DNA of 44,470 nucleotides. Origin: a virus. Taxonomy: Duplodnaviria; Caudoviricetes. The first letter of the stretch is position 1. Every line of letters starts with the position of its first letter. A program made the position numbers and the translations under genes. Location: positions 1-44,470 of IMG/VR virus record IMGVR_UViG_3300023179_000184. One strand, 5' to 3'. The notes beneath the pieces were generated by a model that worked only from the letters and a program-made list of their open reading frames with translations, was not told the origin of the DNA and made no database searches. Of the stretch, positions 2,792 through 35,213 are shown piece after piece.

Positions 2792-3838
2792 ATGAAAATT
2801 GCGGTATACACAATTGCCCTTAATGAAGAAGATAACATTCAAGAATGGTATGAATCTGCCAAAGATGCAGACTACCTGTTTATTGCTGATACTGGTTCTA
2901 CAGATAAGACTATAAGACTTGCTAAAAAACTGGGTATCAATGTTGCAAAAATCTCTGTTAAGCCATGGCGTTTTGATGATGCTCGCAATGCTGCTCTTGC
3001 TTTACTACCAGATGACATCGATATATGTGTTTCACTTGACCTAGATGAAAGATTGTCTGAAGGTTGGAGAGAAGACTTGGAATCGATTGACCCAAGTTTT
3101 ACTCAATTGCAATATAAATATGTCTGGTCTTGGAGAGACCCACAATCAAGAACTCAACCACAGGTAGAATACTTGTTAAATAAAATACATGCAAGGCACG
3201 GATATAGATGGAAATACCTTGTCCACGAATTAGTTTTTCCAGATAGAAATGAAAATCATAAAGAAGGTTTATTAGAAAAACTTCAAATTCATCACTACTC
3301 AAATCAGTATGAAAACAACAATAAGTATGGTGATATGATTTTGGCTGCCTTTGAGGAAGAAAAAGATGATAAAAGATATTGGATATACAAGATAGGTGTT
3401 TTGCTAACAAAGGATAAAAAAGAGGGTAAAAATACTATTTTAGAATATTTAAAAAAGTTTAAAGATGATTTAGAACCAGTAGAAAAAGCAAGACAATATA
3501 AAAACCTATTTATATGCACATTGAACAAAAGATATCTGTATAAAGCCCATAGAGAATTTCCAGAAGAAAGAGAGTTTATGGTAGATATCGCTATGATTAG
3601 TTTTATCAAGAAAAAGTATAGAAAGTCTAGAAAATACTGTAAGAAAGCCCTAAAGATTACAACAAGAAAACTTGATTACGAATATAAAGAGTATGCTTGG
3701 GGATATCTTGCTAAAAATATGCTGTATGTATGTAATCATAACCTTAAATTTAGAAATAGAAAGGACCAACTTCACCTGAACGTCAATTCTATAACATCGT
3801 CTAGTTTTGACTTATTTAAAGATGAAGTTGTGCTATAA
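2792..3838 (+). CDS. family 2 glycosyltransferase with C-terminal helical (TPR-like) region
   Basis: IAVYTIALNEE, ADTGSTD, FDDARN, LDLDE (DxD) and VHE motifs of GT2/GT-A fold. Confidence 0.9.
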   Translation: MKIAVYTIALNEEDNIQEWYESAKDADYLFIADTGSTDKTIRLAKKLGINVAKISVKPWRFDDARNAALALLPDDIDICVSLDLDERLSEGWREDLESIDPSFTQLQYKYVWSWRDPQSRTQPQVEYLLNKIHARHGYRWKYLVHELVFPDRNENHKEGLLEKLQIHHYSNQYENNNKYGDMILAAFEEEKDDKRYWIYKIGVLLTKDKKEGKNTILEYLKKFKDDLEPVEKARQYKNLFICTLNKRYLYKAHREFPEEREFMVDIAMISFIKKKYRKSRKYCKKALKITTRKLDYEYKEYAWGYLAKNMLYVCNHNLKFRNRKDQLHLNVNSITSSSFDLFKDEVVL

Positions 3839-9410: not shown

Positions 9411-12400
9411 ATGGCTACTATCTCACATTCCTATGCAGAAAAAATCTTGCAAGAACATCCAACATCAATATATATATTAGATGATGAAGTTGTTCATTTT
9501 AATGATATTAATCTTAATAGTTTTAATTCAAGTTTTCCATCAACTACTGGAAAATTAATTCGCTGTTTAAATTTAGCAAAAGATTTTGGATTTATAACAT
9601 CGTCAGTAAATATTGAAAAGGTTGCTCCAATTGTTTTTGGTTCCGATTATTCGGTATTTTTATCTGGTTCTAATAGTACAATCACAATACCGTCAAAAGG
9701 AATATTTACTTATAATGGTAGATACAACAGTAATACTCTAGAATTTTGGACTAAAGTAGATAAGCCATATTTGGGAAAAAGAAAAATTGTGGGTGCTTAT
9801 TCTACAAATGACGATGGTAATGGTTTATATGTTAATCAAACATCTTTTGTTTTACAAATTGGAGAAAAGTCTGGCACAGCATATATAAAAGATTTTAATA
9901 GACCATTTCTTATTCAAATTGTAAATACCGCAAATTCGTCAAAACTTATAGTTAATGGAGAAGACCTAATATCTCTATCATTGTCTGATACAGATTTAAA
10001 TACATTAACTGATACAGAATTTTTATCATTTGGTCAAGGAACTTATGATTGTATTTCTACATATACTTATCAAGTTGATACAGTACAGGCTTTAAGAAGA
10101 TTTGGATTTGGTCACGGTGTTTCTTTTCCAGACAATATAGTTAGAAATTTTAATGGAAAGTCAGTAGTAATAGATTATTCAAAATCTAAATATGCTGTTA
10201 ACTATAATTACACATCGGGTGCAGGTTGGAAGCAATCAAAAACAGATAATTTAGTAGTTGAAAATAACTATATATCTAATTTTCAATATGAAAAACCAAC
10301 CCTAAATTCAGACACCAAAACAATAACTGACCTTGAAAACACAATTTCTGGCACAACATTTAATTTAAAATCTGGAACAATGTCCACTGCAATATCTAAT
10401 TTACAGATTGAAAAACTAAACATGATGACGCAACAAACAAAAGGTTTTTATATACACGGATATTATTCAAATGCTTTGCCAACATCAGACGAAGTTTTGT
10501 TTAAAATTGTTAATAAGAATAATTCAAATGAATATTTTTCTATAGTTGTTAATAGTTCTACAATCTCCTATAGAATAAAATATCAGTCATCAGACGAATA
10601 TGAAATTCTATCAGAAAATTCAAACAATCTTGTTTATAATTCACCAAATTTTAATTTTATCATTGGTATAGATATAGATGCTTTTGCAACATATTGCATG
10701 ACTCAAAACCAACAGGGCAGGGGAACAGATGTAAAAAACTTTTTTGCAAATCAGTCTGACCTAATTGCTTATATTGGTGGAGATAGTAATTTAACTATTT
10801 CAAAAACCTGTTCTGCAAATATTTATTCAGTTAAATTTTTAACAGATGAGAATTTATCCAAACGTTCATCTTTAGTTTCTGCATCTGGAACTTTTACATA
10901 TCCAGTAGACATAAGCAATGTTTTGACTACATCTGCATCATTGGCAAACAGCATTGTAGGTAGTTATGAAGTTAAACCATATCAAGATTATTTAAATCTT
11001 GCAAGCGTTGGATATAGACTTGGTGTATTTAGTAATGGTTATTGGAAAAATGCAATTCCCTTATCACAATTTTGCAAGGTAGAAAATGACACCGTATATC
11101 CATATAACTTTATTCAATTTAACATTGATTATGAATCATCTTTGCTAGAAAAAACAATTTCTTCAAAAAACTATTTTGATACAAATAGTTATGAAAATTC
11201 AAATGTAAAAACATATATAACCTTTGAACCAGTATCTAATTCATATAAAGAAGATTCTACTTTTACAACAACATTAGAGCCAAGTTCTGATAGAACCGTT
11301 ATTCCAGGGGTATCTTGGGAAACAACAAAATATGAAATTGTTGATGGCTTTGTAATTTATCCACCAACTGGAATAGATATTAGAGAATATAATCTAGTTA
11401 TACATATAGATTTTAATGTTGCAGACACTGAAAATAATTCTATAACTATTCAAAAAATGCAATTATCATCTCAAGCATATAATCAAAATTCTATAAAAAC
11501 AATTGGAACAAAATATGGAACAGAACTTATTCCATATACATATAATACTTCGACATCGACATATGACTATAATGGTTATAATCCATTCTTAATTAGTAAA
11601 AGAGAGAACCCATACACATATATGGGCAGGGAATCTGGAATCAGACTTGTTGGATTTGATACAACAGTTGCTAACACTGTTCGTGGAATTAGAATTCCTA
11701 TTAACCAAACAGCAAATATTAGCATGATGCAACTATCTATATTTTACAATGCTGAATTAGACACAAGTTCTTCTCCGTTCTATGCAAAATTTCCAAATTC
11801 ATCAGAAAAAGTATTTGAAATAAAGGCTCAAAACAAGACAGTTGAAGTTGTTTTAACAAGAACAGGAAACGGAAATACCGCAACAATTTCGGCATCATTA
11901 AATGGAGTGGCAGACAATCAGGTATTTTATTTTATAAACGGTAAGCATGATAATGTTCCAACAATTACTACAAATCGCTGGTACACACTTGGAATATTTT
12001 TTAAGGAACCACTTATATTTGACCCTAGTGGCGAATTCAATCTAATTGGCGGTATATCAATTGACAACCTATCATATTATCAATTTAAATTTGCTGCTGG
12101 AACCTGGAATGACCTAACATCATTAACATGGAACTCCATAACTCCTTATACTTGGAATTTTATAATTGATAATAGTTATTGGTTAAATAACCTAATAAAT
12201 TGGAATACAACGTGGAATTCCATAACACCATACACCTGGTCAATAATCAATAATAGCAGTTCTTGGGAAAATGTCTTAGGACCAACATCAATATCTTCAA
12301 AAAATATGTACTCAATGTTTACTGGAACAAATAGAATTATTGGTGAAACAAGTCTAACTAATAATTTAGGCTTGGTTGCAGCAGAATATAAATATCTGGA

Positions 12401-12440
12401 TAGCCCAATTAAACAAACTTATGTTGTCAGTGTGGCATAA
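9411..12440 (+). CDS. large virion structural protein with LamG/concanavalin-like beta domains
   Basis: YAEKILQEHPTSIYILDD N-terminus, TLEFWTKV...KLIVNGE pattern and ITTNRWYTLGIFF; Trp-spaced repeats near the C-terminus. Confidence 0.65.
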   Translation: MATISHSYAEKILQEHPTSIYILDDEVVHFNDINLNSFNSSFPSTTGKLIRCLNLAKDFGFITSSVNIEKVAPIVFGSDYSVFLSGSNSTITIPSKGIFTYNGRYNSNTLEFWTKVDKPYLGKRKIVGAYSTNDDGNGLYVNQTSFVLQIGEKSGTAYIKDFNRPFLIQIVNTANSSKLIVNGEDLISLSLSDTDLNTLTDTEFLSFGQGTYDCISTYTYQVDTVQALRRFGFGHGVSFPDNIVRNFNGKSVVIDYSKSKYAVNYNYTSGAGWKQSKTDNLVVENNYISNFQYEKPTLNSDTKTITDLENTISGTTFNLKSGTMSTAISNLQIEKLNMMTQQTKGFYIHGYYSNALPTSDEVLFKIVNKNNSNEYFSIVVNSSTISYRIKYQSSDEYEILSENSNNLVYNSPNFNFIIGIDIDAFATYCMTQNQQGRGTDVKNFFANQSDLIAYIGGDSNLTISKTCSANIYSVKFLTDENLSKRSSLVSASGTFTYPVDISNVLTTSASLANSIVGSYEVKPYQDYLNLASVGYRLGVFSNGYWKNAIPLSQFCKVENDTVYPYNFIQFNIDYESSLLEKTISSKNYFDTNSYENSNVKTYITFEPVSNSYKEDSTFTTTLEPSSDRTVIPGVSWETTKYEIVDGFVIYPPTGIDIREYNLVIHIDFNVADTENNSITIQKMQLSSQAYNQNSIKTIGTKYGTELIPYTYNTSTSTYDYNGYNPFLISKRENPYTYMGRESGIRLVGFDTTVANTVRGIRIPINQTANISMMQLSIFYNAELDTSSSPFYAKFPNSSEKVFEIKAQNKTVEVVLTRTGNGNTATISASLNGVADNQVFYFINGKHDNVPTITTNRWYTLGIFFKEPLIFDPSGEFNLIGGISIDNLSYYQFKFAAGTWNDLTSLTWNSITPYTWNFIIDNSYWLNNLINWNTTWNSITPYTWSIINNSSSWENVLGPTSISSKNMYSMFTGTNRIIGETSLTNNLGLVAAEYKYLDSPIKQTYVVSVA

Positions 12441-22268: not shown

Positions 22269-25200
22269 ATGGCTGATATTGAATCCAACATAAAAGTAAA
22301 TATAGATACGTCAGATGCTCTGGCTCAACTTAAGTTACTTCAGCAACAGATATCAGCCTTTCAGCAAGCCATGCGAAATGCAGGGGCACAAAATGCCGCT
22401 GCTGCTGCTGCAATGCAGCAAAATCTTGTAACATCTATTAATGCTACTGGAAAATTCCAAGCAAATATAAAGACAATCAAAACAAGTGCAGAATCTTTTA
22501 CCGAAGCACTTGAAAAGAATAAGATGTCTATTGGCGAATACTTTCGCTATGCTGGTGGGGCATCTAAAACATTTGGTAAATTATTCAAATCAGAATTCGC
22601 TACAATACAACAAGTAGCAATTGAACGAGTAAAAGAAGTTCAGACTCAATACATTAAACTTGGTCGTGATGCTAGTGGAGCAATGAAGGCTATTTCTGTA
22701 AAGCCACTTGCTCTTGACATGAACAACCTTGCAACTAAAACACAAATTGCTGCTCAAAGACAACAGTTGTTTAACCAACTTATGAAGCAGGGTTCTACAC
22801 AACTTCTAAACTTTGGTAAGAATACACAGTGGGCTGGTCGCCAGTTGATGGTTGGTTTTACAATCCCACTTACAATGATGGGGTCTGCTGCTGCTAAAGC
22901 ATATATGCAAATTGAGGCAGCATCAGTTAAGTTTAAACGTGTCTATGGTGACATGAATACAACAACAACAGAAACCAATAAAATGGTTAAATCTGTTCAG
23001 GCTTTGGCTAATCAATTTACTCAATATGGTCTTGCAGTTGCAGAAACCATGGATATGGCTGCCCAGGCTGCTGCTATGGGTAAAACTGGTTCAGACCTTT
23101 TAGCACAAATCAACCAATCTGCAAAACTTGCAGTTCTTGGTGGTGTAGACCAACAGAAGGCACTGGAAACAACCATCAGCCTTACAAATGCATTTGGTGT
23201 TTCTGCACAAGACCTTGGCAAAAACATTGACTTCTTGAACGCAGTAGAAAACCAGACAACACTTAGCATTGAAGACCTCACAATCGCTATTCCAAAGGCT
23301 GCTCCAGTTGTTAAGCAACTTGGTGGAGATGTTAAAGACCTTGCATTCTTCCTAACAGCAATGAAGGAAGGTGGAATTAACGCATCTGAAGGTGCCAACG
23401 CCATTAAGTCTGGTCTTGCATCTTTAATTAATCCATCACAAAAAGCATCACAATTTTTACAAAGTTTTGGAATCAATGTTAAAGGAATTGTTGAAGCAGA
23501 TAAGGGTAATCTAAAGAAAACAGTCATTGATTTTGCCAAAGCCTTAGACACGCTTGACCCACTAAACCGTGCTCGTGCTATTGAGCAAATGTTTGGTAAG
23601 TTCCAGTTCTCTCGTATTTCTACATTGTTCCAGAATGTAATTGCAGAGGGTAGCCAAGCACAACAGGTAGCAGAACTATCAAAGAACTCAGCAGAAGAAC
23701 TTGCTATCCTATCAGAACGAGAAATGAAAAAGATTTCAGATTCTCCAATGTTTAAGTTCCAAAAATCTATTCAAGATATGCAAGCAAAACTTGCTCCTGT
23801 TGGTGAAGCATTCCTTAAGGCTATTACTCCAATAGTTGAATTTGTTGGCAAAATATTAGATGGTTTCAATAATCTTAGTTCTGGTGCAAAAAGTTTTATA
23901 ACTATTTTAGTAACTGCTGTAGCAGGTATTGGACCATTGCTACTTATGACATTCGGTTTGATTGCAAACGGTATTGCAAACATTATGAAATTGTTTACAA
24001 ATATCAAAGCATTTATAAATAAAACCACAAAGCCATCCGATATTATTGGTGAACAAACTAAGTATATGACAACAGAGCAATTAAATAGTGCTGCTATTGC
24101 AGACTCTTTAGACCAAGCACATGCCAAACTTAAACAAACTTTTACATCAGAAACAGAAGCATTAAGAAAACTAACTGAAGCATATCGTCAAGCAGTTCAA
24201 GCACAACAAGGATATGCTGGTATTCCTGGAGTTCCAGTTGGAAATCCAAATGCAACACCTCCAAAGAAATATGCAAATGGTGTATCTTATGTTCCTGGTC
24301 CAAGAGGTGCTGGAGACATTATTCCAGCCCTATTGTCTCCAGGTGAAGCAGTCATTCCTGCAAAACATGCACAAAAGTATGCTCCAGTAATTGCTGGTAT
24401 GGTTTCTGGAAATCTTCCAGGATTTGAAAGTGGAACTACTGGTGTTGGTATGCGTCAAAGCACTATTGGACCACTTACGGAAAAACAAACAGAAGGATTA
24501 TTAAGAACAGGAAAAACTCTTAAAGAGATTAGCGATGAAGTTTATGCTGGTCCATATGGTCAGATTCCACCAGAACAATATATTAGACAAATTGAGCCAA
24601 CCAAGGGTCATTCTTTCCCTGCTTTTGAGGTTGGCGGTATTTATGAAAAGGCTGATGGAACAAGAGTATTCGTTAAGCCACAAATAGATTTGACATCAGC
24701 ATTAGCAGAAGTTCGTGGAACTCAGATTGCAAGAGATGCCCATCAACTAGTAACACCTATGCAAAAAATTGTTACAATGATGGACCCAACAGACCCAGAA
24801 GGAAGAAGAAAATTCATTGCTCTTGAATCACCATTAAGTGAACAAATTGCAAATATTAAAACATCATTTACCAAAGATGAATATTTTAAACAACTTGTTG
24901 CATCGCTTCTTCGTGGAGATAAAGATTTAGGTATTGGTAATCTTGGCGGCAATGTTCTTGCTGACGTTGGTCCTGCTGGTGTATTCCAGAGGGCATCAGG
25001 AAAACGTCAACTTGGTGGCAGAATTAACTCAATGGAAGAACAAGCCATCATTAACTTACTTGGTGTAAAGGGTGGTGCCAAGAGATTCTTTGCAGAAGCA
25101 ACTTCTGAAATTGCTAGAGGTATGTCTCCAGATGCATATGATGCAGCAATGAAGGCTGAAATCGCTTCAGTTCTATCTAGATTCCCATCCGTTATAAATA

Positions 25201-28200
25201 GTTTTGGTTCTCTAACTCCAGAAGAAAAGGCTGCATATGCAGACATGGAGAACCGCCTAAAGCAAGGCTCAATGACTGACTGGCGTAAATATCAAGGAAT
25301 TCATTCTGCAGTAACCCCTAAAAAATATAAAGATGGTGGAATTGTAGGATATCTTAAAGGTAGTAAAGGAATTAAAAAAGAATCAGACTATACTCCACAA
25401 GAGATTTATGAATTATTAAAAATTCAAGAAGCACACGCTTATGGTGAAATGGATATCAAAGATAAAAATGTTCAAGAACAACTTAAACGAGTATTTTCTG
25501 AATCAAGTCCAGAAGACTTTAATAAATTTAAAATTCTTAGCAATCTTACTATGAGTTTGCCAGGTAAATTAAATCAATTAATTAAAGAAACTGGCAATGG
25601 TGTACAGGGACCAATTTTTAGTCAGGCATATAATGCTTTGCGTGGAAAACTAAGCAAAACTGCAAAAATGTCTGGTGTCAAAAATATGTCAGATGCTCAA
25701 ACTCTTGAAGATATTATTGGAACAAAATTTGTAGGAGAGCCATTAATCAAAGATTCAATATTTGCAAAAATAGTTGAATCAACCATTAATGAACAAACTG
25801 CAAATGTTTCTCAAATTGGCTCTGCAGCAAACTTAATTTGGGAAAGAACAAAACAAGTTGGAACTGTTCGTCCTAAACGTGATAATTTAGACACACAAAA
25901 ATGGAATGAATTAATTACAACAATGCTACAAAATGATGAGTTAGTTGTAGTTCCAGGAAATGAAAATGGTTTTCCAGTTGCACAAACACCATTTGGTGGA
26001 CGTTTTGGAAGAATCATGTCGGATGGCATTGGCTCAAGCAAAACTGCTGAAGGTCGTGCTATTCGTAAATTGGCACAAGATGCAGCAAACCAATGGGCTA
26101 AATCTGGAAATCATAAGTTGCCACTGCCACTAGTTGACCTTGGCAATGGAAATGTTGTTCAGTTAAAATGGAGAGACAATAGTGCAAAACCAGGAACATT
26201 CTCATCCGATGAATTTCCTGCTTATGATGATAAAAGTAAAAAATATGCATCAGACCTATCTTTTGCACCTGGTGGATTAAATGTTCTTAAAAATCTTGGA
26301 TATTTTGCTAAAGGTGGAATAATTCCTGGAGGACAAGATGAAAAATATAAATACCTAGAAAAAGACAGAGGTTTTTATAAAACTGCATTAGCCTATGCTG
26401 CTATGGAAAAAGCATATAGGGATAAGAAACCAAATGCTGCACAACTAAAGGGTGCCTACACCAACCTAAGAGCCAAATATGGAATTATGGATAGTGAGAT
26501 AGTAGATGAATACTATTGGGACGAACCAGAACAAATTGAGGCAAGAGTTGCAGCAGAATGGGCAAAAGCCTACCCTGGATTGAAACTTGCTAAGGGTGGA
26601 ACTATACCAGGATATGCTAAAGGAAGTTTCGACATTCCTGGTATGGGACAAAAGAAATCAGCATATTCTGATGCAAAACTAAAACACAATATCCTTCTTA
26701 AACTTGTAGAGTTAAAGAAACAAGGATTGCCAGATGATGCAGTAATTCAATCAATCAGGTCTAATCCAGAATTTGCTAATGCACTAGCAGAATATGAAAA
26801 GTTTGGTCAAAGACCAAGGCTAAATGTTACAAGTTTAAATACAGCAATGCGTTTAAAGAGTGACAAGGCTCTCGACAACGCTGTTGGTAGAAGTGCAGAA
26901 TATCTTGAACAACAGTCATTTGGATATAAAGCAAAAAAGATAGCAAAGGCTACTCCAGGAAAAATTGGTGAAGTTGCACAAGGTTTAGCGTATGCTGGTA
27001 TTGCAGGAATCGCAGGATTAGGCAGTATGGCTGTAACAAATCCACTAGGATTCAGGGCTGCTACTAGTGGTTTAGGAGAACTTGCAAAAGTAGTTTTGGC
27101 AATGTTTGGACTTCATCTAAATAAGGGTGGTGTTATTCCAGGGTATGAAGAAGGTACTCCAGAAGTTCTTCCACAAGGATTTTCTGCTATGCCAACACAA
27201 GCAGAAAAAGATGCACAAGTTGCATTTGTTCAGAATTCTCCATTAGCCCAACTACAACGTGGTGACGCATTAGCAAGTTTGGTTGCCAAGTCTACAATTG
27301 GTAAGGGAAACCAAATGTTCCGTGTTCCTACCATTAGACAAAATGAAGAACTAGCCACAAAAAAGGTTGGGGACATAGTTGATATTGGTAATAGGTTTAC
27401 ATCTATTGCAGACCAAACGCAACTGCAAGCAATAGGAATGACTGCTGCAGGAAAACTAAATACAGGAAATAGAGAACGTGCTGTAAACACTATCCTGAAA
27501 CTTGTTGCTGGCTACGATATGCCAGGAATTATGAATCACAACTCATACAATCCTGATTATAAAAAACAAGCATTTGGAGAAAAGGGTGGTGCAGAATATC
27601 CATTCCAGTCAGAGGGAGTTCTTCCTCCAGGACTTAAAGGCAAGATTACTAATATTGCTCAAAGTGGAGACCAAAAAATAATTGAAGTCTTAATTCAAAA
27701 ACTTGCTAAGGGTGGAATAATTCCAGGGTATGCTAATGGTGGTTTTATTGCAACACAAAAGCCAAAGGCATCAGTATTTGATATTGATGATACCCTTCTT
27801 GACCTATCTTCTTTTATGCCAGCACACGAAGCAAAAAACGAAAAACTTCCTAAAGACCAAAGAACAAAATGGCACGAAGAGGCTGCAAAGAATCCTAAAG
27901 GTATTCCTGCAGCAATTGAAAGACTAAGGGCTGCACAGGCTCGTGGTAATAAGATTCTTCTTATGACTGCTAGACCACAGTCATATGACATGGTTACAAT
28001 GGATACCCTACAAAAACTGGGTATTGATACTAACAATGTAAAACTAATTTCTAGAGCAAGCAAAGATTATCGTAAACCAGAACAGATGAAGTTTGATAAA
28101 ACTTCTAAGTATATGCAATGGTATGACATTGAAGAATTTTACGATGACCTTGCAGAGACTCGTGCTGCTATCAATCAATTAGGTATTAATGCAATTGACC

Positions 28201-31200
28201 CACTTGCCCTTGCTAAGGGTGGAATTATTCCTGGAAAAATTGGTCCACTTCATAAAGATTATGTTCCACCAATTACCGCAAAAGTTGGAACACCATTTTA
28301 TGCTATAGAAACAGATTATGAAGGTGTAAACGATAGTGATGGTTTATTTACTTCTAAGGAAGCAGCAGATGCATATATTGCTCGTATGGCTAAAGAGTAT
28401 TATGGCAACAATAAAGAAATGCAAAAACTTCATTTTGACAGAACTCATGCTGTTCCTATGTATGGCAGCACAATGGGCGGACCTACTCAATGGGGCATTA
28501 ATGTTGATTATGAAGGTGTTGCTCCAGATTGGGGAACATTCCCTAATAAAAAAGCCGCTAATAATTTTATAGCAAAATATGTCGAACAGTTTAATGACCC
28601 AGAAGCAAGAAAACGATATGCCAGCACTATGCATCCTGTTCCAATGAAGATTAATAAATCGGAATTGATGAAGAAACTTGCTAAGGGTGGAATAATTCCA
28701 GGATATGCTAAGGGTGGAATTATAGGTTCCATTTGGAATAGTCTATCTAACATTGGAACACAAGATGGAGAGTTCTCAGATAGACAACTTGGTGGTATGG
28801 TTAAATACGTAGCAGTAGACGGTGCTTTTCCAAAAAACTTTAAACAATGGGAACCAAATGATGAGTTTTCTGCTGCATTTAGAAAATATAGAGAAATTAA
28901 ACATTTAGAATATTCTATTCCAGCAATGGAAAAGTTTGTATCAATGTATAAACCTGGAATGAAAAAAGAACAATTAATGATTGATATGTATGATTCCGAA
29001 GGTGGTAAAAGATTATTTAGAAGAGGTAATCCAGAACTTTCAGGATTAGTAAGTAAGTCTAAAGAACAACAGTTAGCAAGAATAGAACAGGTTAAACAAC
29101 AAGTTGCACAGTTCTATCAAAGTAAAGAATATGCAATGTTACAGGGTGCAAAAGGTAAAAATGCTAGTGCTTGGTTGATGCAACAACTAAGGCGTATGGG
29201 TAAATCCAATGTTTACTCTGCAATAGAAATGAAAGATAGATTTGCAGATAAAAAAGAAAATATTATTATTGGTGCCGAAGTAAGTGCACATGAACAAAAA
29301 ATTGAAAATGCAATTGATGAAGGTCTTAGCCCTGGAGAAATTGCATTACTAAAACAAGAAGCATTAAGACATAGAACAACTTCAAGATTAAAGGTTGGGG
29401 CTCTAAAGCATCCAAAAGATGCAGGAAGTAAAAATGGAAGATATTTTGGTCCAGGCATGTACTTTGCAGAAGACCAACTAGATTCTAAAAAACTATTTTC
29501 TGATTTTGGAAACAATGTTTATAAACTAGACCTATCAGATGAAGAAAAAGAATTTGTAAGAAATAGTAAAGGCTATATTGATGAAGCAACAATGATTCAA
29601 AAAGCAAAAGAATATAAACATCTTTTGCGTGATAGAGGAATTAATGATGCTTGGTTTGGCGATAAAACTATTCGTGGAGTATTTGGTGCTAAATGGACAG
29701 ACCCATTTATTCAAAAACTTATGGAAGAGGGATACATTGGTTATCAACATGGAAAGGCTTTTACTGATTGGTATGTTGGTTCTAGACCTGGCTATGGTTT
29801 AAAGAAAACTAAATATGCTAATGGTGGAATTATTCCAGGATATGCCAAGGGCACTAGTAAAGTAGATGAGTTTGCAGGATACGATGAATATCTTGGAACT
29901 CCAGAATACTATAACTGCCCTCACGGTTTTGTTTTTGGAGAAGGATGCCCTGCATGTAGAAAAATATCTAATGATTCGATGTATAAGCAAGGATACAAAA
30001 AATGTACTGCACAAACTAAAACTGGTCAACGCTGTAAAAACTTTGCAGAAGCAAATGAACAATTATGTAGTTTCCATAAGAAAAATGGTGCAGAAGCAAA
30101 GTATATCCAAAGAGGAACACAAAGACCAGTTCAAAGTTGGATAGAATCATTAAAACTTGCAGATGGTGGATACGTTGACCCATATGACGATTTACCAAGT
30201 GATTATTTTGACTGTCCTCATGGATACCTATATGGTGAAGGATGTCCTACCTGTAAGAAAGCAAGAAATAACGAATGGTATGCACAAGGATATAAAAAAT
30301 GTACTGCTCAAACAAAGAATGGTAAGCGTTGTCAAAACTGGGCAAACCCTAATGAGCAATTATGTAATTTCCATAAAAAGAATGGTGCAGAACCTGTTTA
30401 TAAACAATTAGGTATAGCGAGAGAAATAGAAAAGCCTTATAAGTTTGCAAATGGTGTATTCTCAGTTCCAGGACCAAAGGGTGCTGGCGATGTAGTTCCT
30501 GCAATGCTATCTCCAGGTGAGGCTGTTATTCCTGCTGATAGTGCCGCCAGACATCGTGGACTAATTACTAAAATGATTGCTGGTGATTTGCCAGGGTATG
30601 CCAATGGTGGAATTATTCCAGGGTATGCATTTGGAACACCAGAAGTTCCTGGTCAAAATTTTGGATTCCCAGGTTTTGGAGAAAGACCACTCAAGGTTAT
30701 TATTATTGGCGATGAAACAAAGATTAATGACGATACATCAAAGGTTCAAAAAGAGGTTGCAAAAGAACAAAAGGCTGCTGCAAAAGACCAGAAAGATGCT
30801 GCAAAAGAATCAAAGAAATCAGACAAAGATATTCGTGACGCAATTATAAAAGACAAACAAGAAGCACGAAAAATGCAACAGGAAGCAATTGCTGAACAAA
30901 GAAAAATAACTGCAAACCAAGAAAGAGTCAAGGCTAACTATGACCAGATGACTGATAAAGAAAAGGCTAAATTTGATGAGAAGTTAAACAAGAAATATGA
31001 AAAAGAAGATAAAGACCTTCAGAAACAATATGACAAAGAAGATAAAGGTCCTTCAAAATTCTCTAAACTATTCAAAGCAAATAAGTTTACTGCTAAAGCA
31101 ACAGGCATTGGCTATATGGCTTCTGGTGTTGTTGGATTAGCAACTCAAATACCTGGCGGAATTGGTCAGGCAGCCCAAGCCGCTTTGCCAGCCATTGGTG

Positions 31201-34200
31201 CAATGACTTCAGCAATGTCGATGATTCCTGGACCTGCTGGTATGGTTGTTGGTGGTTTGATGGCGGTAGCAACAATTGCAGGACAAATAGAAGCACACTT
31301 TAAAGCACTTAGAGAAGAATCTGCTAAAAACGTAAGAGCACTTGGTGCATCAACACAAGCCATGAGTAAGTTGTCAGAATTTGCTAAAAAGGTTGGTTCT
31401 AGAGAACTTATGGATAAGAGACGTGAAACATCAGCAAGCAGTTTCTTCTACATCAGACCAGGCAAAAAAACATTTGGTGAATCCTATATGGAATCAGAGG
31501 CTGGAAAAGAATTAACTCAAGAAACAAGTAGTTCACTAAAGTCTAAAAACCCACAGGTAACTTCAAAATTAATTTTGTCACAAATGGGAACAGCAATTAC
31601 CGAAGGAATTCTGTCACCTGAACAAGCACGAAGTATTGTTTCTAACTTGGCAAAACAATTAAAGAATACTCAATTTGGTATAGATGTTAATGCAAAAATA
31701 ACAGCAATGTATGGACCAGATGGAACTCCACTAGACTATTCAAAGAATTCTATTAAACTTGCCATGGATGCAGTTCTTGCTGTAGCAAGTGAAACTGGTG
31801 TAGAGGGTGCTACAAAAGCAGCGGCATTAGCAGAATCAACCGTTGCTGCAATGAATTCTATTCAGGCTGCAACAGATGCTTTGGCTGCAAATCCAAAAGC
31901 AACTAAGGAAGAAAAAGATGCACTAACACAATATGCTCAACAAACAATGACACAACTATATGACCAAACAGTAAAGGGACAGTCGGAACTGGGAAACCAG
32001 TTTGCAGATTCAGCAAGAGAATCTTTGACTAAGGCATACGAAGGAACTGGTTTTGAAGATGTTGCTAAATCTACAGGAGAAGCAATTCAAAACTTTGATG
32101 CTTATAGTCATGCACAAGAAACTTTCTTTACTCAAGTGCTCGCATCAAAAGTTATAGGTACAACACAAATGCAAACCGCTATGAACCTAAATATAAGTGG
32201 TGATGTCTTAACAGAACTAATCAAAACAAATCCAACTGCACTCAACCAATTGCTTGGTGTTGCAGGAAGTATGGACAAAGAAACTGGTGCAGCACTTATA
32301 AGTAATCAGGCTGGACAAACATCAGAACAAATGGCATCAACTGCCAGTGCACTAGAACTAACAGGAAAAACTACTGGAGTTTTTGCAATGGATGAAACCA
32401 GCAAAAAGGCAATTCAAAAATACTATGCAAATGAAGGATTGGACAAAGCAAAAGAAATAGATAGAATATATAAAGAATTAGATAACAAAAAAACAACAAT
32501 AACAGTCGATACGGTTACTAGTGTTGCTGGAGATAACTTAGAATTGAAAGAAGCCATGAAAAATGGAAAAGTATCTAGTTACTTCAACAAACTTAAAGAC
32601 AAAAAGAACAAAATTATTTTTACAACTGAATTCAACTCATTACTTAGTGCAGATGAAACATTGGCACCAGCAATTAGGTTGTGGGCATCTGCCGCTGGTA
32701 AAAATACAAATATGACAGATGTAGACCTTGTTGCAACATATAAAGTAGAATACGCATTCTCTGAAGCACAAAGAGTTACAGACACAGGTGCTTTACAAGA
32801 TTTAACATTTAATCCAGACGATGCGTCAAATGGCACACCAGAAGCATCGATTCTTGATAAATATGTAAAGATGCTTAGAGAAGGTTCTAACTATGCTCAA
32901 AAACTTACAACTGGTTGGACAGCATCATATAATGCATTATCCAAATATGGAACTAAAGCAATTGACCAGATGGCTGGTATTGCATCATTGATGAAACAAT
33001 ATGGTGGAGATACTGGAATTATTAATGATTTCTTGGGTGGTACCGAAGAAGAACAAAACAGAATTATTGACAAGAGCACAGGTAAATTAAGGGCTGGTGC
33101 TGGAGAACTTATTGCTAAACTTAAACAAATTAAAGATATGCAAGAATATGGTTTATCATATGTTCTTGCTTCACCAGCAGAAAGATTACAAAAAGATAAC
33201 GAACTTTATCAGGCTGGATTAGATGTAATCGGTGCAAAAGAAAAGAAAATTAATGATAAATACGATAAACGTATCAAGGCACTTGATGAAATTGGTAAGA
33301 TTCAAGAAAAGAATAACCAGTTACAAAAAGATACCCTAACACTTGCTGATGCATTGTCTAAGGGTGACATAGCAGCAGCCGCTAGAGCAGCAATGCAAAC
33401 ACAACAAGATAGTCAAAAACAAGCACTTGAAGATGCTAAAGCAAATATTGAAAATGCTAGAAAAGCAGAACTAGAAGCAATTACAGTTAAAATACTTGGA
33501 CATACTCAACATCGTTCCGACCTAGAACAAATGATTTCTGACAATTCGCAAAAAATTGCGGAATATAAATTGAAAGAAATGAACCGTCAAACTCAGATTG
33601 GAAAAGATGCTCTTATTGCTGCCAAGGCTAGTGCAGAACAATTAAAAAATGGTAAAGCATTGGCTAGTTTGTCAAAAGGAACTGGAGGAGGTTCTGGTAA
33701 TGGAAATAAAGGAAACCCAACTGGACAACCTTCTGCTACTCAAGACGCTAAGGGAAACCCTATTGGAACCAGATACGACTCTCAGGGACAAATAGATGTA
33801 AATGGAAAATACAATGACCAAGGTAAATTAATTAAGCCAGCAGCAACTGCTGCAGAAATTAAAAAATTACAAACAGGTGCATCTGTTGCTGGACTTACTG
33901 CTGCTAAAGAAAATGCACAAAATAAATTGAATACTAAAAGAACGAGTGTACAAAATAAATTTGGTTTAAATTATAGTGACTTATATTTGGCAGTTAAAAG
34001 CAAAGATATGCAATCAGTTTATGGAAAAGTTAAAAAAGACCAACGAGCAGAATTTGCTAAAGAGTTTTCTAATCTTACATCATTACAAGATGTTGTAGAT
34101 ACTTATAATGACTTGTCTGGAAATGGAGATATTTTAAATAGTGCTGCAGGAAAAGAAGCATCACAACAACTATTAGATGCTTTGCCAGAAAATGACATAA

Positions 34201-35213
34201 AGGCTATTACTCTTGTAAAAGAAAGAGTCTCATCATATGCTACAGAACTAATAGATTATTTAGCAAAACAAAAAGCGTATAAAGACGCTGCAAATAAATT
34301 AAATGTTGGAAATGTTGCATGGGAAGACATGACACCAGAAAACAAAGAAAAACTTGAAACATTGCATACAGCCTATATTGAAAAAAATAAATTTATGTTT
34401 CAAAAACATAAAGATACCAATGCCGCAGTAGATACAGTAACAAAACTTTCTAATAATGGATTAGACCTTAATTCAGTGGGAATAGGAAGAGGTTATTTAT
34501 ATAAAAACGATATAACAAATAAAGAAGTAAGAAATTGGCAAACTTTTGCATCTGGTGGTTTAGTATTACCAAAACCATATGCTGGTGGTGGCATAGTTAT
34601 TCCAAAGGGATTTAGCAATGGAGGTAAGGCTACTAAAGACAAAAAAACTAAAGATAAAAATAAGGGTACTCAAACAACAGATTTAACAACTGAAACAGGA
34701 GAAAAGATTTCCAAACCACAGGACGCTGGCAAATTAGTTAAATCTGTAACAAATAAAACTAAAAGTAAAGGTAACCACATAACTAATTTGGGTGGTCCTC
34801 GAACCAGTTCAGGTATTGCACGTTCACCTGGCGGTGGAATGGGTATGATTGGCGGAATCCTTGAAATGATGCATCAAATATTTGCAGATGGTGGTGTGGT
34901 TGTTCCAAAGGGATATGCTATTGGTGGCGGTATTTATGGAACTGATACTGTACCTGCTATGCTTACTCCAGGAGAATTTGTAATAAGAAAATCAGCAGTA
35001 GATGCTATTGGTGTGGAAAATCTACAAAAACTTAATGGATATGCCAATGGCGGCTTGGTTGGTGGAACTTCAAGCACAACAGCAAGTGATTCAGTGTATA
35101 ATTATAGTATAACAGTGAACGCCAATTCTTCAGATGCAAATGATATTGCAAATGCAGTATTGAACCAAATTAAGAGAATTGATTCACAAAGACTTAGGAG
35201 CAATGTTATTTAA
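22269..35213 (+). CDS. giant tape measure protein (TP901-type core) carrying an internal array of effector-like domains
   Basis: N-terminal TMP core (GRQLMVGFTIPL, AAMGKTG, LNAVENQT, EGGINASEGANAIKSGL), TM segments near 23890-24000 and 31090-31290, C-terminal GTDTVPAMLTPGEFVIRKSAV and YNYSITVNA; synteny. Confidence 0.92.
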   Translation: MADIESNIKVNIDTSDALAQLKLLQQQISAFQQAMRNAGAQNAAAAAAMQQNLVTSINATGKFQANIKTIKTSAESFTEALEKNKMSIGEYFRYAGGASKTFGKLFKSEFATIQQVAIERVKEVQTQYIKLGRDASGAMKAISVKPLALDMNNLATKTQIAAQRQQLFNQLMKQGSTQLLNFGKNTQWAGRQLMVGFTIPLTMMGSAAAKAYMQIEAASVKFKRVYGDMNTTTTETNKMVKSVQALANQFTQYGLAVAETMDMAAQAAAMGKTGSDLLAQINQSAKLAVLGGVDQQKALETTISLTNAFGVSAQDLGKNIDFLNAVENQTTLSIEDLTIAIPKAAPVVKQLGGDVKDLAFFLTAMKEGGINASEGANAIKSGLASLINPSQKASQFLQSFGINVKGIVEADKGNLKKTVIDFAKALDTLDPLNRARAIEQMFGKFQFSRISTLFQNVIAEGSQAQQVAELSKNSAEELAILSEREMKKISDSPMFKFQKSIQDMQAKLAPVGEAFLKAITPIVEFVGKILDGFNNLSSGAKSFITILVTAVAGIGPLLLMTFGLIANGIANIMKLFTNIKAFINKTTKPSDIIGEQTKYMTTEQLNSAAIADSLDQAHAKLKQTFTSETEALRKLTEAYRQAVQAQQGYAGIPGVPVGNPNATPPKKYANGVSYVPGPRGAGDIIPALLSPGEAVIPAKHAQKYAPVIAGMVSGNLPGFESGTTGVGMRQSTIGPLTEKQTEGLLRTGKTLKEISDEVYAGPYGQIPPEQYIRQIEPTKGHSFPAFEVGGIYEKADGTRVFVKPQIDLTSALAEVRGTQIARDAHQLVTPMQKIVTMMDPTDPEGRRKFIALESPLSEQIANIKTSFTKDEYFKQLVASLLRGDKDLGIGNLGGNVLADVGPAGVFQRASGKRQLGGRINSMEEQAIINLLGVKGGAKRFFAEATSEIARGMSPDAYDAAMKAEIASVLSRFPSVINSFGSLTPEEKAAYADMENRLKQGSMTDWRKYQGIHSAVTPKKYKDGGIVGYLKGSKGIKKESDYTPQEIYELLKIQEAHAYGEMDIKDKNVQEQLKRVFSESSPEDFNKFKILSNLTMSLPGKLNQLIKETGNGVQGPIFSQAYNALRGKLSKTAKMSGVKNMSDAQTLEDIIGTKFVGEPLIKDSIFAKIVESTINEQTANVSQIGSAANLIWERTKQVGTVRPKRDNLDTQKWNELITTMLQNDELVVVPGNENGFPVAQTPFGGRFGRIMSDGIGSSKTAEGRAIRKLAQDAANQWAKSGNHKLPLPLVDLGNGNVVQLKWRDNSAKPGTFSSDEFPAYDDKSKKYASDLSFAPGGLNVLKNLGYFAKGGIIPGGQDEKYKYLEKDRGFYKTALAYAAMEKAYRDKKPNAAQLKGAYTNLRAKYGIMDSEIVDEYYWDEPEQIEARVAAEWAKAYPGLKLAKGGTIPGYAKGSFDIPGMGQKKSAYSDAKLKHNILLKLVELKKQGLPDDAVIQSIRSNPEFANALAEYEKFGQRPRLNVTSLNTAMRLKSDKALDNAVGRSAEYLEQQSFGYKAKKIAKATPGKIGEVAQGLAYAGIAGIAGLGSMAVTNPLGFRAATSGLGELAKVVLAMFGLHLNKGGVIPGYEEGTPEVLPQGFSAMPTQAEKDAQVAFVQNSPLAQLQRGDALASLVAKSTIGKGNQMFRVPTIRQNEELATKKVGDIVDIGNRFTSIADQTQLQAIGMTAAGKLNTGNRERAVNTILKLVAGYDMPGIMNHNSYNPDYKKQAFGEKGGAEYPFQSEGVLPPGLKGKITNIAQSGDQKIIEVLIQKLAKGGIIPGYANGGFIATQKPKASVFDIDDTLLDLSSFMPAHEAKNEKLPKDQRTKWHEEAAKNPKGIPAAIERLRAAQARGNKILLMTARPQSYDMVTMDTLQKLGIDTNNVKLISRASKDYRKPEQMKFDKTSKYMQWYDIEEFYDDLAETRAAINQLGINAIDPLALAKGGIIPGKIGPLHKDYVPPITAKVGTPFYAIETDYEGVNDSDGLFTSKEAADAYIARMAKEYYGNNKEMQKLHFDRTHAVPMYGSTMGGPTQWGINVDYEGVAPDWGTFPNKKAANNFIAKYVEQFNDPEARKRYASTMHPVPMKINKSELMKKLAKGGIIPGYAKGGIIGSIWNSLSNIGTQDGEFSDRQLGGMVKYVAVDGAFPKNFKQWEPNDEFSAAFRKYREIKHLEYSIPAMEKFVSMYKPGMKKEQLMIDMYDSEGGKRLFRRGNPELSGLVSKSKEQQLARIEQVKQQVAQFYQSKEYAMLQGAKGKNASAWLMQQLRRMGKSNVYSAIEMKDRFADKKENIIIGAEVSAHEQKIENAIDEGLSPGEIALLKQEALRHRTTSRLKVGALKHPKDAGSKNGRYFGPGMYFAEDQLDSKKLFSDFGNNVYKLDLSDEEKEFVRNSKGYIDEATMIQKAKEYKHLLRDRGINDAWFGDKTIRGVFGAKWTDPFIQKLMEEGYIGYQHGKAFTDWYVGSRPGYGLKKTKYANGGIIPGYAKGTSKVDEFAGYDEYLGTPEYYNCPHGFVFGEGCPACRKISNDSMYKQGYKKCTAQTKTGQRCKNFAEANEQLCSFHKKNGAEAKYIQRGTQRPVQSWIESLKLADGGYVDPYDDLPSDYFDCPHGYLYGEGCPTCKKARNNEWYAQGYKKCTAQTKNGKRCQNWANPNEQLCNFHKKNGAEPVYKQLGIAREIEKPYKFANGVFSVPGPKGAGDVVPAMLSPGEAVIPADSAARHRGLITKMIAGDLPGYANGGIIPGYAFGTPEVPGQNFGFPGFGERPLKVIIIGDETKINDDTSKVQKEVAKEQKAAAKDQKDAAKESKKSDKDIRDAIIKDKQEARKMQQEAIAEQRKITANQERVKANYDQMTDKEKAKFDEKLNKKYEKEDKDLQKQYDKEDKGPSKFSKLFKANKFTAKATGIGYMASGVVGLATQIPGGIGQAAQAALPAIGAMTSAMSMIPGPAGMVVGGLMAVATIAGQIEAHFKALREESAKNVRALGASTQAMSKLSEFAKKVGSRELMDKRRETSASSFFYIRPGKKTFGESYMESEAGKELTQETSSSLKSKNPQVTSKLILSQMGTAITEGILSPEQARSIVSNLAKQLKNTQFGIDVNAKITAMYGPDGTPLDYSKNSIKLAMDAVLAVASETGVEGATKAAALAESTVAAMNSIQAATDALAANPKATKEEKDALTQYAQQTMTQLYDQTVKGQSELGNQFADSARESLTKAYEGTGFEDVAKSTGEAIQNFDAYSHAQETFFTQVLASKVIGTTQMQTAMNLNISGDVLTELIKTNPTALNQLLGVAGSMDKETGAALISNQAGQTSEQMASTASALELTGKTTGVFAMDETSKKAIQKYYANEGLDKAKEIDRIYKELDNKKTTITVDTVTSVAGDNLELKEAMKNGKVSSYFNKLKDKKNKIIFTTEFNSLLSADETLAPAIRLWASAAGKNTNMTDVDLVATYKVEYAFSEAQRVTDTGALQDLTFNPDDASNGTPEASILDKYVKMLREGSNYAQKLTTGWTASYNALSKYGTKAIDQMAGIASLMKQYGGDTGIINDFLGGTEEEQNRIIDKSTGKLRAGAGELIAKLKQIKDMQEYGLSYVLASPAERLQKDNELYQAGLDVIGAKEKKINDKYDKRIKALDEIGKIQEKNNQLQKDTLTLADALSKGDIAAAARAAMQTQQDSQKQALEDAKANIENARKAELEAITVKILGHTQHRSDLEQMISDNSQKIAEYKLKEMNRQTQIGKDALIAAKASAEQLKNGKALASLSKGTGGGSGNGNKGNPTGQPSATQDAKGNPIGTRYDSQGQIDVNGKYNDQGKLIKPAATAAEIKKLQTGASVAGLTAAKENAQNKLNTKRTSVQNKFGLNYSDLYLAVKSKDMQSVYGKVKKDQRAEFAKEFSNLTSLQDVVDTYNDLSGNGDILNSAAGKEASQQLLDALPENDIKAITLVKERVSSYATELIDYLAKQKAYKDAANKLNVGNVAWEDMTPENKEKLETLHTAYIEKNKFMFQKHKDTNAAVDTVTKLSNNGLDLNSVGIGRGYLYKNDITNKEVRNWQTFASGGLVLPKPYAGGGIVIPKGFSNGGKATKDKKTKDKNKGTQTTDLTTETGEKISKPQDAGKLVKSVTNKTKSKGNHITNLGGPRTSSGIARSPGGGMGMIGGILEMMHQIFADGGVVVPKGYAIGGGIYGTDTVPAMLTPGEFVIRKSAVDAIGVENLQKLNGYANGGLVGGTSSTTASDSVYNYSITVNANSSDANDIANAVLNQIKRIDSQRLRSNVI
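24270..30640 (+). repeat. dispersed in-frame direct repeats encoding [LFY]AxGG(IIPGYAxG) linkers
   Basis: Copies start at 25326, 26304, 26586, 27117, 27702, 28209, 28677, 29814, 30156 and 30597, with YANG/FANG variants at 24270 and 30444. 27699-27727 and 28674-28702 are identical over 29 nt (AAACTTGCTAAGGGTGGAATAATTCCAGG). Confidence 0.9.

Follow-up and report, generated by a model that had tools for sequence, protein, structure and literature searches.

Joint peptide repeats separate exchangeable cargo modules in a phage tape measure protein

A tape measure gene with an internal module array

The window, a 44,470-nt stretch of Caudoviricetes DNA (IMG/VR record IMGVR_UViG_3300023179_000184), carries a tape measure protein (TMP; PF10145, E 3e-25; PHROG TMP, E 1e-102) amid portal, head protease, capsid-like and tail genes. 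As in siphoviruses, a TMP domain is present, and major tail and chaperone genes precede the TMP while minor tail genes follow it. The nearest cultured TMPs are ~29% identical to that of the window, and searches of cultured phages returned no match to the array described below. This is a freshwater (lake) phage, and Actinobacteria are the probable hosts of its family, given that three of five relatives encode whiB. Within the gene we distinguish the following features, the joints between them being listed separately.

22269..35213 (+): TMP reading frame (4,314 aa), surrounded by head and tail genes of the siphovirus type (PF10145, PHROG TMP, neighbour genes)
23886..23984 (+): aa 540-572, a hydrophobic stretch predicted to span a membrane, located before the array (hydropathy)
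24270..24422 (+): first copy of a 51-aa TMP mini-domain with the joint motif at both ends (sequence, profile)
24423..25325 (+): module M0, kinase-like by motifs only
25326..26303 (+): module M1, highly variable, no family assigned (sequence)
26331..26585 (+): module M2 (family F6), no family match (sequence)
26625..27116 (+): module M3 (F10), no family match (sequence)
27156..27701 (+): module M4 (F3), candidate ADP-ribosyltransferase of the R-S-E type (motif positions, Atlas leads)
27741..28208 (+): module M5 (F2), HAD phosphatase with intact DxD (PF03767, PHROG polynucleotide kinase family)
28236..28676 (+): module M6 (F16), internal repeats, no family match (sequence)
28716..29813 (+): module M7 (F7), predicted ADP-ribosyltransferase in its C-terminal part (Atlas, motif)
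29853..30443 (+): modules M8a and M8b, a duplicated pair of zinc-finger-like units of the Cys/His kind, including a minimal joint at 30156 (PF09329 below cut-off)
30444..30635 (+): second copy of the TMP mini-domain, closing the array, with a joint at 30597 (sequence)
31221..31280 (+): aa 2985-3004, another hydrophobic stretch, located after the array
34545..35210 (+): C-terminal TMP region with more motif copies, homologous to lambda gpH 735-798 (E 0.0018)

Hydropathy placed a segment of the aa 540-572 type in all five proteins examined, and the mini-domain profile matches the Douge TMP twice (E 2.7e-24), that protein thus carrying two copies of it.

Every module begins after [FYLM]AxG and ends with [FYLM]AxG. 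The array comprises a HAD phosphatase, two likely ADP-ribosyltransferases, a likely kinase, zinc fingers and modules without assignment. M5 matches PF03767 above the cut-off (E 4.4e-18), which makes its HAD assignment firm by sequence criteria. M4 is likely an ADP-ribosyltransferase of predicted activity: its motif positions come from the sequence and presumably correspond to the R-S-E labels, and Atlas leads to PF03496/ModB stay below 0.9. The AlphaFold2 model of M4 has a pLDDT of 37, and a search for M4 relatives 102-326 aa long was negative. The C-terminal part of M7 likely belongs to the H-Y-E type, likewise with predicted activity, and scores 0.94 in the Atlas against a cluster in which 12% of members carry ART-PolyVal (PF18760). 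An ADP-ribosyltransferase is reportedly mentioned in work by Ghai et al. on freshwater actinophages. M0 has no Pfam, PHROG or credible PDB match, and PDB sequence searches with M1, M4 and M7 also gave nothing credible; conserved H and N residues in M1 faintly recall an HNH-type site. A homologue of M2 in assembly P0003 is a tandem duplicate (87/87 aa identical), and M6 is confined, among 32 arrays, to the window phage. The claim of an earlier note that the cargo between joints is unrelated fails for the last two blocks (29853-30443), M8a and M8b being 68% alike at the nucleotide level. In the usual view a TMP is a ruler and a channel for DNA, carrying a cell-wall hydrolase at most, and our literature searches found no description of such a cargo array.

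Joint repeats, reading frame and codon usage

The peptide encoded by the repeats, [FYLM]AxG(GIIPG), separates ten modules within the TMP. A regular expression for it left six segments unsplit, and the motif variants at those junctions were recognised by inspection. The principal joints, all defined by sequence, are these.

26304..26330 (+): joint FAKGGIIPG
26586..26624 (+): spacer-bearing joint (9 aa), in which a 16-mer occurs for the first time
27117..27155 (+): joint with spacer, LNKG variant
27699..27742 (+): left copy of a 42/44-nt direct repeat, a joint with spacer
28209..28235 (+): joint LAKGGIIPG
28674..28717 (+): right-hand partner of the repeat at 27699, with 42/44 nt identical and at a distance of 975 nt
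29814..29852 (+): joint with spacer

The earlier note had reported the 42/44-nt match and exact recurrence of the 16-mer at 26586, 27702, 28209 and 28677. Both observations hold exactly, with no other occurrence of the 16-mer on either strand of the whole window, and every copy lies, as had been claimed, in the one frame of ORF 22269-35213. The proposed array span of 26304..30635 begins too late, further joints lying upstream at 24423 and 25326. At the DNA level, window joints are identical in patches: of 55 joint pairs, one has a perfect match as long as 29 nt, and every other pair shares at most 20 nt.

Because the motif is also found in array-free TMPs (lambda; Mildred21, with one copy) and its glycine codon varies freely (GGT 74, GGA 40 and GGC 14 in 128 joint copies), the joint is primarily a conserved protein motif, common to other TMPs including lambda gpH. 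With this codon free to vary, the likeness of the joints is no demonstration of selection on the DNA itself.

We compared the joints with expectations from a codon-pair model built from the non-joint codons of 19 related TMP genes. Synonymous codon identity over all window joints was 211/304 (0.694) versus an expected 0.432 ± 0.046, a value attained in 0/5,000 simulations. Under the same model, the four identical codings of LAKGG, a motif chosen post hoc, have P = 4.5e-6, and a pair like the 42/44 repeat, with at most one codon mismatch in 12 codons, has P = 0.0027. One coding is used by 15/16 LAKG joints as opposed to 0/53 LAK elsewhere in the same genes. Joints following different modules are more alike within genomes (0.68) than between them (0.57; p 0.005-0.007), and remain so when the window is left out (0.64 and 0.54; p 0.023); genome codon bias differs by no more than 0.04. 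The simulations and the within-genome comparisons thus reject codon or codon-pair bias, against which the earlier note had proposed to check its claim, as the source of the joint DNA identity.

Module exchange among related arrays

The 32 related arrays fall into 27 architectures and their 125 junctions into 56 adjacencies, with six family pairs occurring in both orders; as the arrays are akin to each other, these are not counts of independent events. Modules have been gained, lost, duplicated, reordered and exchanged between lineages at the joint peptide. Leaders and trailers stay with their own module whatever its neighbours, and these neighbours change among relatives, such that the same module does recur at different array positions, as the earlier note had suggested looking for.

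Local alignments built without use of the motif ended within 10 aa of a window joint in 70/75 cases (32/36 distinct positions, versus 15.7% of all positions) and inside the motif in 44/75, in line with the breakpoints foreseen by the note; since alignments tend to run on into a motif that both sequences have, and domain borders fall at the motifs, this count alone cannot separate targeting from selection. One alignment end lies 143 aa within M1, and one contig departs from M2 ~20 aa past the joint. Many junctions have in common just a 12-nt variable core, which is short for RecA-type pairing.

The HAD tree conflicts with the N-terminal tree at fully supported splits. M4 is mobile across lineages: seven more distant TMPs have it in front of another joint, in most cases close to the C-terminus, and in 7/7 the module ends at the motif. 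M4 and M7 are adjacent, without the 975-nt block, in relatives L082 and P0002, and the HAD module follows an M1-type module in 22/23 arrays. Near-identical assemblies share the window's module order over the whole array (P0001) or part of it (P0044 and P0045), and the shuffled modules of relatives differ from those of the window by at least 8% in amino acids.

Probable crossover between joints and its alternatives

In our reading, copies of a TMP peptide motif separate exchangeable modules, and their near-identical joint DNA probably serves as an in-frame crossover point. A short TMP peptide motif would have been multiplied, its copies coming to lie between cargo modules, and a RecA/UvsX-like recombinase or strand annealing would cross over between joint copies of 12-44 nt, in a single genome or in two that infect the same cell, either as an unequal exchange or by way of an excised circle. 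Such joint-to-joint crossover would add, drop, duplicate and reorder modules, with products in frame because all joints share one frame, and repeated exchange would make the joints more alike. The 975-nt block of the HAD module and M6 may have entered between M4 and M7 and so come to be flanked by the 42/44 repeat. The earlier note's proposal, in-frame module shuffling by microhomology recombination between linkers, is thereby supported, the crossover itself being inferred from its end products.

Of five relatives searched for recombinase genes (one complete, four 49-66% complete), four encode a RecA/UvsX-like protein and none an ERF or Rad52-type annealing protein. No crossover product of the window genome was seen in the contigs of eight runs, uncovered stretches in low-depth runs not being taken as module absence. 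Two candidate joints, 27736 to 28679 (run X1, 27-nt side) and 28234 to 30681 (run X3, 24-nt side), were not counted; each has a side below the 30-nt guide, and in neither are two joint copies fused in register.

Exchange precise to a repeat might also be the work of a dedicated site-specific recombinase, integron- or shufflon-like, that recognises joint DNA, and the commonest joint coding does open with a short interrupted palindrome. Yet most joints have no palindrome, no DNA core is invariant over the 128 joint copies, tyrosine integrase (PF00589) and serine resolvase (PF00239) were found in 0/5 relatives, and no integrase family occurs among the 66 ORFs of the complete one, all of which makes this reading highly improbable. 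Equally slim are the chances that repeats led assemblers to chimeric module orders: although unitigs break at joints, one assembly splits just past the 27702 joint and the exact P0003 duplicate could be an artefact, the window order recurs in P0001, assembled from another source, single contig pieces (runs X1 and X3) cross several joints, relatives' shuffled modules are too divergent from the window's, and most joints share <21 nt.

A more serious competitor, which we still regard as unlikely, is that illegitimate recombination strikes anywhere and that the survivors are motif-joined products, the motif being indispensable for cleavage or for delimiting domains; a similarly small probability attaches to the corollary that joint DNA likeness is a mere leftover of copying. 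The motif's conservation as protein despite free glycine codons, its presence in array-free TMPs and the few exact bases common to many joints favour such a filter. Against it, junctions are exact to the motif, with over half of the alignment ends inside it, joints behind unrelated modules are homogenised within genomes, and removal of the 42/44-flanked block yields an adjacency known in two relatives. We therefore retain crossover at the joints as the probable explanation.

Integron cassette arrays are ordered exchangeable units with one joint copy per unit. The window array resembles them in this respect; it differs in that no integrase was found in five relatives, DNA sites of the attI/attC type are absent, and what is exchanged is a fused protein domain, not a gene. 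Of the earlier note's comparison with an integrase-free cassette array, the absence of an integrase (0/5 relatives) thus stands, whereas the integron likeness gives way to a closer analogy, PeSL-mediated shuffling in T4-type phages (Arbiol et al. 2010, PMC2839356). In that paper, short dispersed repeats bound exchangeable modules, insertions and deletions map to PeSL repeats, circles are shown by inverse PCR, and a dedicated enzyme or general phage recombination (<50 bp homology) are both left open. Module gain and loss maps to dispersed short repeats here too; unlike PeSLs, intergenic promoter/stem-loops between whole genes, the joint is coding, in-frame and frame-fixing inside one essential structural gene.

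Like the polyvalent proteins of phages and conjugative elements, thought to enter with DNA (Iyer et al. 2017, PMC5512222, excerpts), the window protein is very large and combines disparate predicted enzymes (ART, kinase), one module resembling ART-PolyVal clusters. It departs from them in being built on a TMP in which the joint motif is fixed; Pfam searches of the whole TMP or its parts detected none of their common, if not universal, hub domains (zincin MPTase, other peptidase), and neither 'tape measure' nor 'linker' occurs in the text of PMC5512222. TMPs with enzyme motifs or cleaved in assembly are described, in the sections we drew on, for TM4 motif 3 (PMC1796659), T5 pb2 (bioRxiv 10.1101/2022.09.20.507954) and lambda gpH (PMC12617516). 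Cargo in these is one or two cell-wall hydrolase motifs, as opposed to up to ten cytoplasm-type modules in a variable array here. Cleaved forms are known for lambda (gpH*/gpHC) and T5 (pb2*/pb2C), and the window protein has homology to gpH, its C-terminus matching a stretch within the part that lambda cuts off.

By analogy with TMP biology (PMC12617516, in part), the modules may travel in the tail and enter the host together with the DNA at infection, where they would act as host-takeover or counter-defence enzymes. A bolder version, tentative and rather doubtful, is that the joint has a dual use, its peptide as a TMP cut site sharing the signal of the lambda gpH cut and its DNA as a crossover handle, making the tail an integrase-free reloadable effector magazine. 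If so, exchangeable effectors, each separate (a nucleotidyltransferase, a phosphatase, kinases and ADP-ribosyltransferases), would be injected from the tail before the genome. The AxG motif is also a candidate, open to testing, for the signal of the lambda gpH cut, the site being stated as unknown in the consulted part of PMC12617516. A survey of phage protein mosaicism (PMC10684548) could, by its own account, confirm no genuine recent TMP mosaicism; the present family clearly exemplifies it, as its junctions map to a motif of four residues and are backed by statistics on the DNA. It would make an essential virion gene a fast-evolving effector depot in freshwater phages, and the array may serve as a naturally occurring template for fitting phage tails with cargo.

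A repeated joint in the tape measure gene

The repeats singled out in the earlier note lie within ORF 22269-35213, which encodes a 4,314-aa tape measure protein (TMP; PF10145, E 3e-25; PHROG TMP, E 1e-102) and belongs to a head-tail cluster of siphovirus type. Their description was borne out: 27699-27742 and 28674-28717 agree at 42 of 44 positions, the 16-mer occurs exactly at 26586, 27702, 28209 and 28677 with no further copy on either strand, and every copy is in the frame of this ORF. The repeats encode the peptide [FYLM]AxG, after which GIIPG and another YAxG commonly come; this joint separates the cargo modules (M0 to M8, in array order). The motif recurs at aa 668, 719 and 1020, as well as within the last 220 aa of the protein. 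Near the C-terminus (34545-35210), several additional copies of the motif and a short insert suggest a second, smaller cargo slot; M4 occupies this region in distant TMPs.

The array is closed by a 51-aa mini-domain, which recurs in 80 sequences, 45 of them non-redundant. Thirteen were set aside, namely a fragment from the window's own cluster and more distant sequences that lack this layout of the array; the 32 retained include the window, and DNA was available for 19. When these 32 arrays were cut at the motif, the 125 resulting segments fell into 22 families and formed 27 architectures with 56 adjacencies; inspection of six unsplit segments revealed motif variants. In a motif-independent border test (40 local alignments of ≥60% identity and ≥60 aa; 80 ends), breakpoints fell at the linkers, as the earlier note had anticipated: 70 of the 75 in-array ends were ≤10 aa from a joint, compared with 15.7% of positions, a count somewhat inflated by the tendency of alignments to extend into the shared motif. 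According to the junction table, each module keeps its own leader and trailer regardless of what adjoins it, and up to two 9-aa spacers lie between modules.

Module order and movement between lineages

The same module was expected at different array places, and six family pairs were indeed found in both orders. The HAD phosphatase module M5 (PF03767, E 4e-18) comes before M4 in five relatives but after it in the window; an M1-type module precedes HAD in 22 of 23 arrays, the exception being the window. In the related locus L081, HAD is joined directly to M7, equivalent to the window minus 468 nt lying between two joints, and in locus L082 and protein P0002 M4 is followed directly by M7, equivalent to the window minus the 975 nt bounded by the 42/44 repeats. 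We infer that this HAD-M6 block was inserted between M4 and M7 in the window, leaving the repeat on both flanks. P0003 harbors an exact, joint-bounded 87-aa tandem duplicate, possibly an assembly artefact.

Modules cross lineages, as judged from tree conflict, M7 synonymous identity and the occurrence of M4 in distant TMPs. The N-terminal tree (20 proteins) groups P0002, P0003 and P0005 with the window (support 100/99), whereas a 100/100 split in the HAD tree (20 proteins) separates them from it; pairwise identities of HAD and N-terminus correlate weakly (rho 0.17; 20 proteins). Synonymous identity of the window to L081 and L082 is 0.84-0.86 in M7 versus 0.70-0.72 in the N-terminus. Seven more distant TMPs, with N-termini 66-70% identical, contain M4 at 73-78% identity, placed before a different joint and mostly near the C-terminus, with the motif at the module's end in 7/7 and its start not at the motif.

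Even longer or more repetitive arrays were observed in the TMPs of L082 (aa 1647-3093 of 4,710) and L089 (aa 1649-2621 of 4,062), where one unassigned module is present in two or three diverged copies (79-83% nt identity within a genome) and an internal mini-domain copy travels as a cassette. At L003:10001-10330, the TMP frame ends after 108 aa and the database protein begins downstream, probably reflecting an assembly frameshift.

Joint DNA and the probable route of exchange

The earlier note had proposed comparing synonymous identity among linkers with that expected from codon bias. A codon-pair model was built from 19 related TMP genes, using their codons outside the joints; identity over all window joints exceeded it, at 211/304 (0.694; expected 0.432 ± 0.046), with none of 5,000 simulations as high. 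Under this model, identical coding of the four LAKGG, a motif picked post hoc, has P = 4.5e-6. Across the 19 genes, a single coding was used in 15/16 LAKG joints versus 0/53 LAK tripeptides elsewhere, the copies being non-independent. Joints behind different modules were more alike within (0.68) than between genomes (0.57; permutation p 0.005-0.007), also with the window left out (0.64 versus 0.54; p 0.023), and genome codon bias differs by ≤0.04.

The identity is patchy: one of the 55 window joint pairs has 29 perfect bases and the others ≤20, and the motif glycine is written with three codons among 128 copies. Given this excess but patchy identity and the variable glycine codon, the peptide is what is conserved, and the joint DNA looks more like the product of recent copying or homogenisation than like a fixed sequence. 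Selection on the peptide, the main rival explanation, strikes us as an improbable account of these data, while joint copies would quite probably cross over by general recombination; the two can operate jointly.

Five related records, one of them complete and the other four 49-66% complete, were surveyed for genes: a RecA-like gene was present in four and whiB in three, and none had a tyrosine integrase, serine resolvase, ERF or Rad52. A scan of 66 of the 73 listed ORFs in the complete relative also found two Holliday junction resolvases and an SSB. Comparison of eight of 16 sequencing runs, all as contigs, with the window gave no credible joint-to-joint deletion, and two weak apparent junctions were rejected. 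One X1 contig departs from M2 about 20 aa past the joint, and module order is unchanged in near-identical assemblies.

Two pieces from run X14, at a depth of 2-3, are no more than suggestive: the alignment of one begins at 26305, after 19 unaligned bases, and the other matches 28599-28714 with one difference, then continues for 35 unaligned bases. In another assembly of the window's phage, the proteins P0045 and P0044 are split, relative to 27729-27770, just after the 27702 joint; their ends imply a small out-of-frame deletion, either artefact or mutant.

The closest cultured TMPs belong to Streptomyces phages (~29%), that of Mildred21 having a single motif match near its C-terminus; the host is likely actinobacterial. 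In the complete relative (G001; L136:6071-11184, L137:15860-18884), a sugar-modification gene block is inverted and three glycosyltransferases of a single family stand in tandem; the window has one gene of this family (2792-3838). An 816-aa ORF (3846-6296) matches a virion protein weakly, and a 1,009-aa ORF ahead of the portal cluster (9411-12440) lacks a notable Pfam or PHROG match.

Cargo, possible cleavage and related systems

The C-terminal part of M7 is similar (0.94) to a cluster in which 12% of members are annotated ART-PolyVal. For M4, leads to ADP-ribosyltransferases were all below 0.9, and structure prediction gave no usable model. The kinase, R-S-E, H-Y-E, HIGH and HNH labels are presumptive, coming from motifs located in the sequences and not from database matches. 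A module with what we take to be a HIGH-type nucleotidyltransferase motif (L006 TMP aa 1033-1197; P0017, P0020, P0026, P0027) is bounded by the joint motif and occurs in more distant TMPs too. A second kinase-like module (L082:13916-14824, L096:11891-12799), with catalytic residues more canonical than those of M0, had no match in Pfam or PHROG. Two hydrophobic segments enclose the array in all five proteins examined, a layout that would fit delivery across a membrane.

At its C-terminus, the window's TMP aligns with lambda gpH 735-798, a stretch that includes the YATGG of gpH (E 0.0018), and the mini-domain profile has two matches in the Douge TMP (E 2.7e-24). In lambda, a ~14-kDa C-terminal piece is removed, with the cut site stated to be unknown in PMC12617516; arithmetic from ~14 kDa puts it around residues 720-730, not far from the gpH region that is matched. 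In T5, an enzyme-bearing C-terminal piece of the TMP is cut off, according to bioRxiv 10.1101/2022.09.20.507954. Because the lambda site is unknown and 'cleav' is absent from the text of the Douge paper, we treat possible TMP cleavage at the joint as a hypothesis.

No description of a motif-bounded cargo array in TMPs was found in a body of full-text literature that excludes most subscription journals. PMC1796659 concerns single TMP enzyme motifs and PMC6802176 freshwater phage ADP-ribosyltransferases, and the authors of PMC10684548 were unable to confirm recent TMP mosaicism. The array resembles in its working the shuffling of PeSLs, the promoter/stem-loop repeats of T4-type phages, as described in PMC2839356, but operates within a single gene. 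The modules it carries are reminiscent of the polyvalent proteins outlined in PMC5512222; by the defining tests of PeSLs and integrons, the array is neither. Cargo injection, like cleavage, is put forward with less support than joint crossover. The motif-bounded TMP cargo array itself is real, with modules that are precisely motif-bounded and reassorted and joint DNA that is identical in excess.
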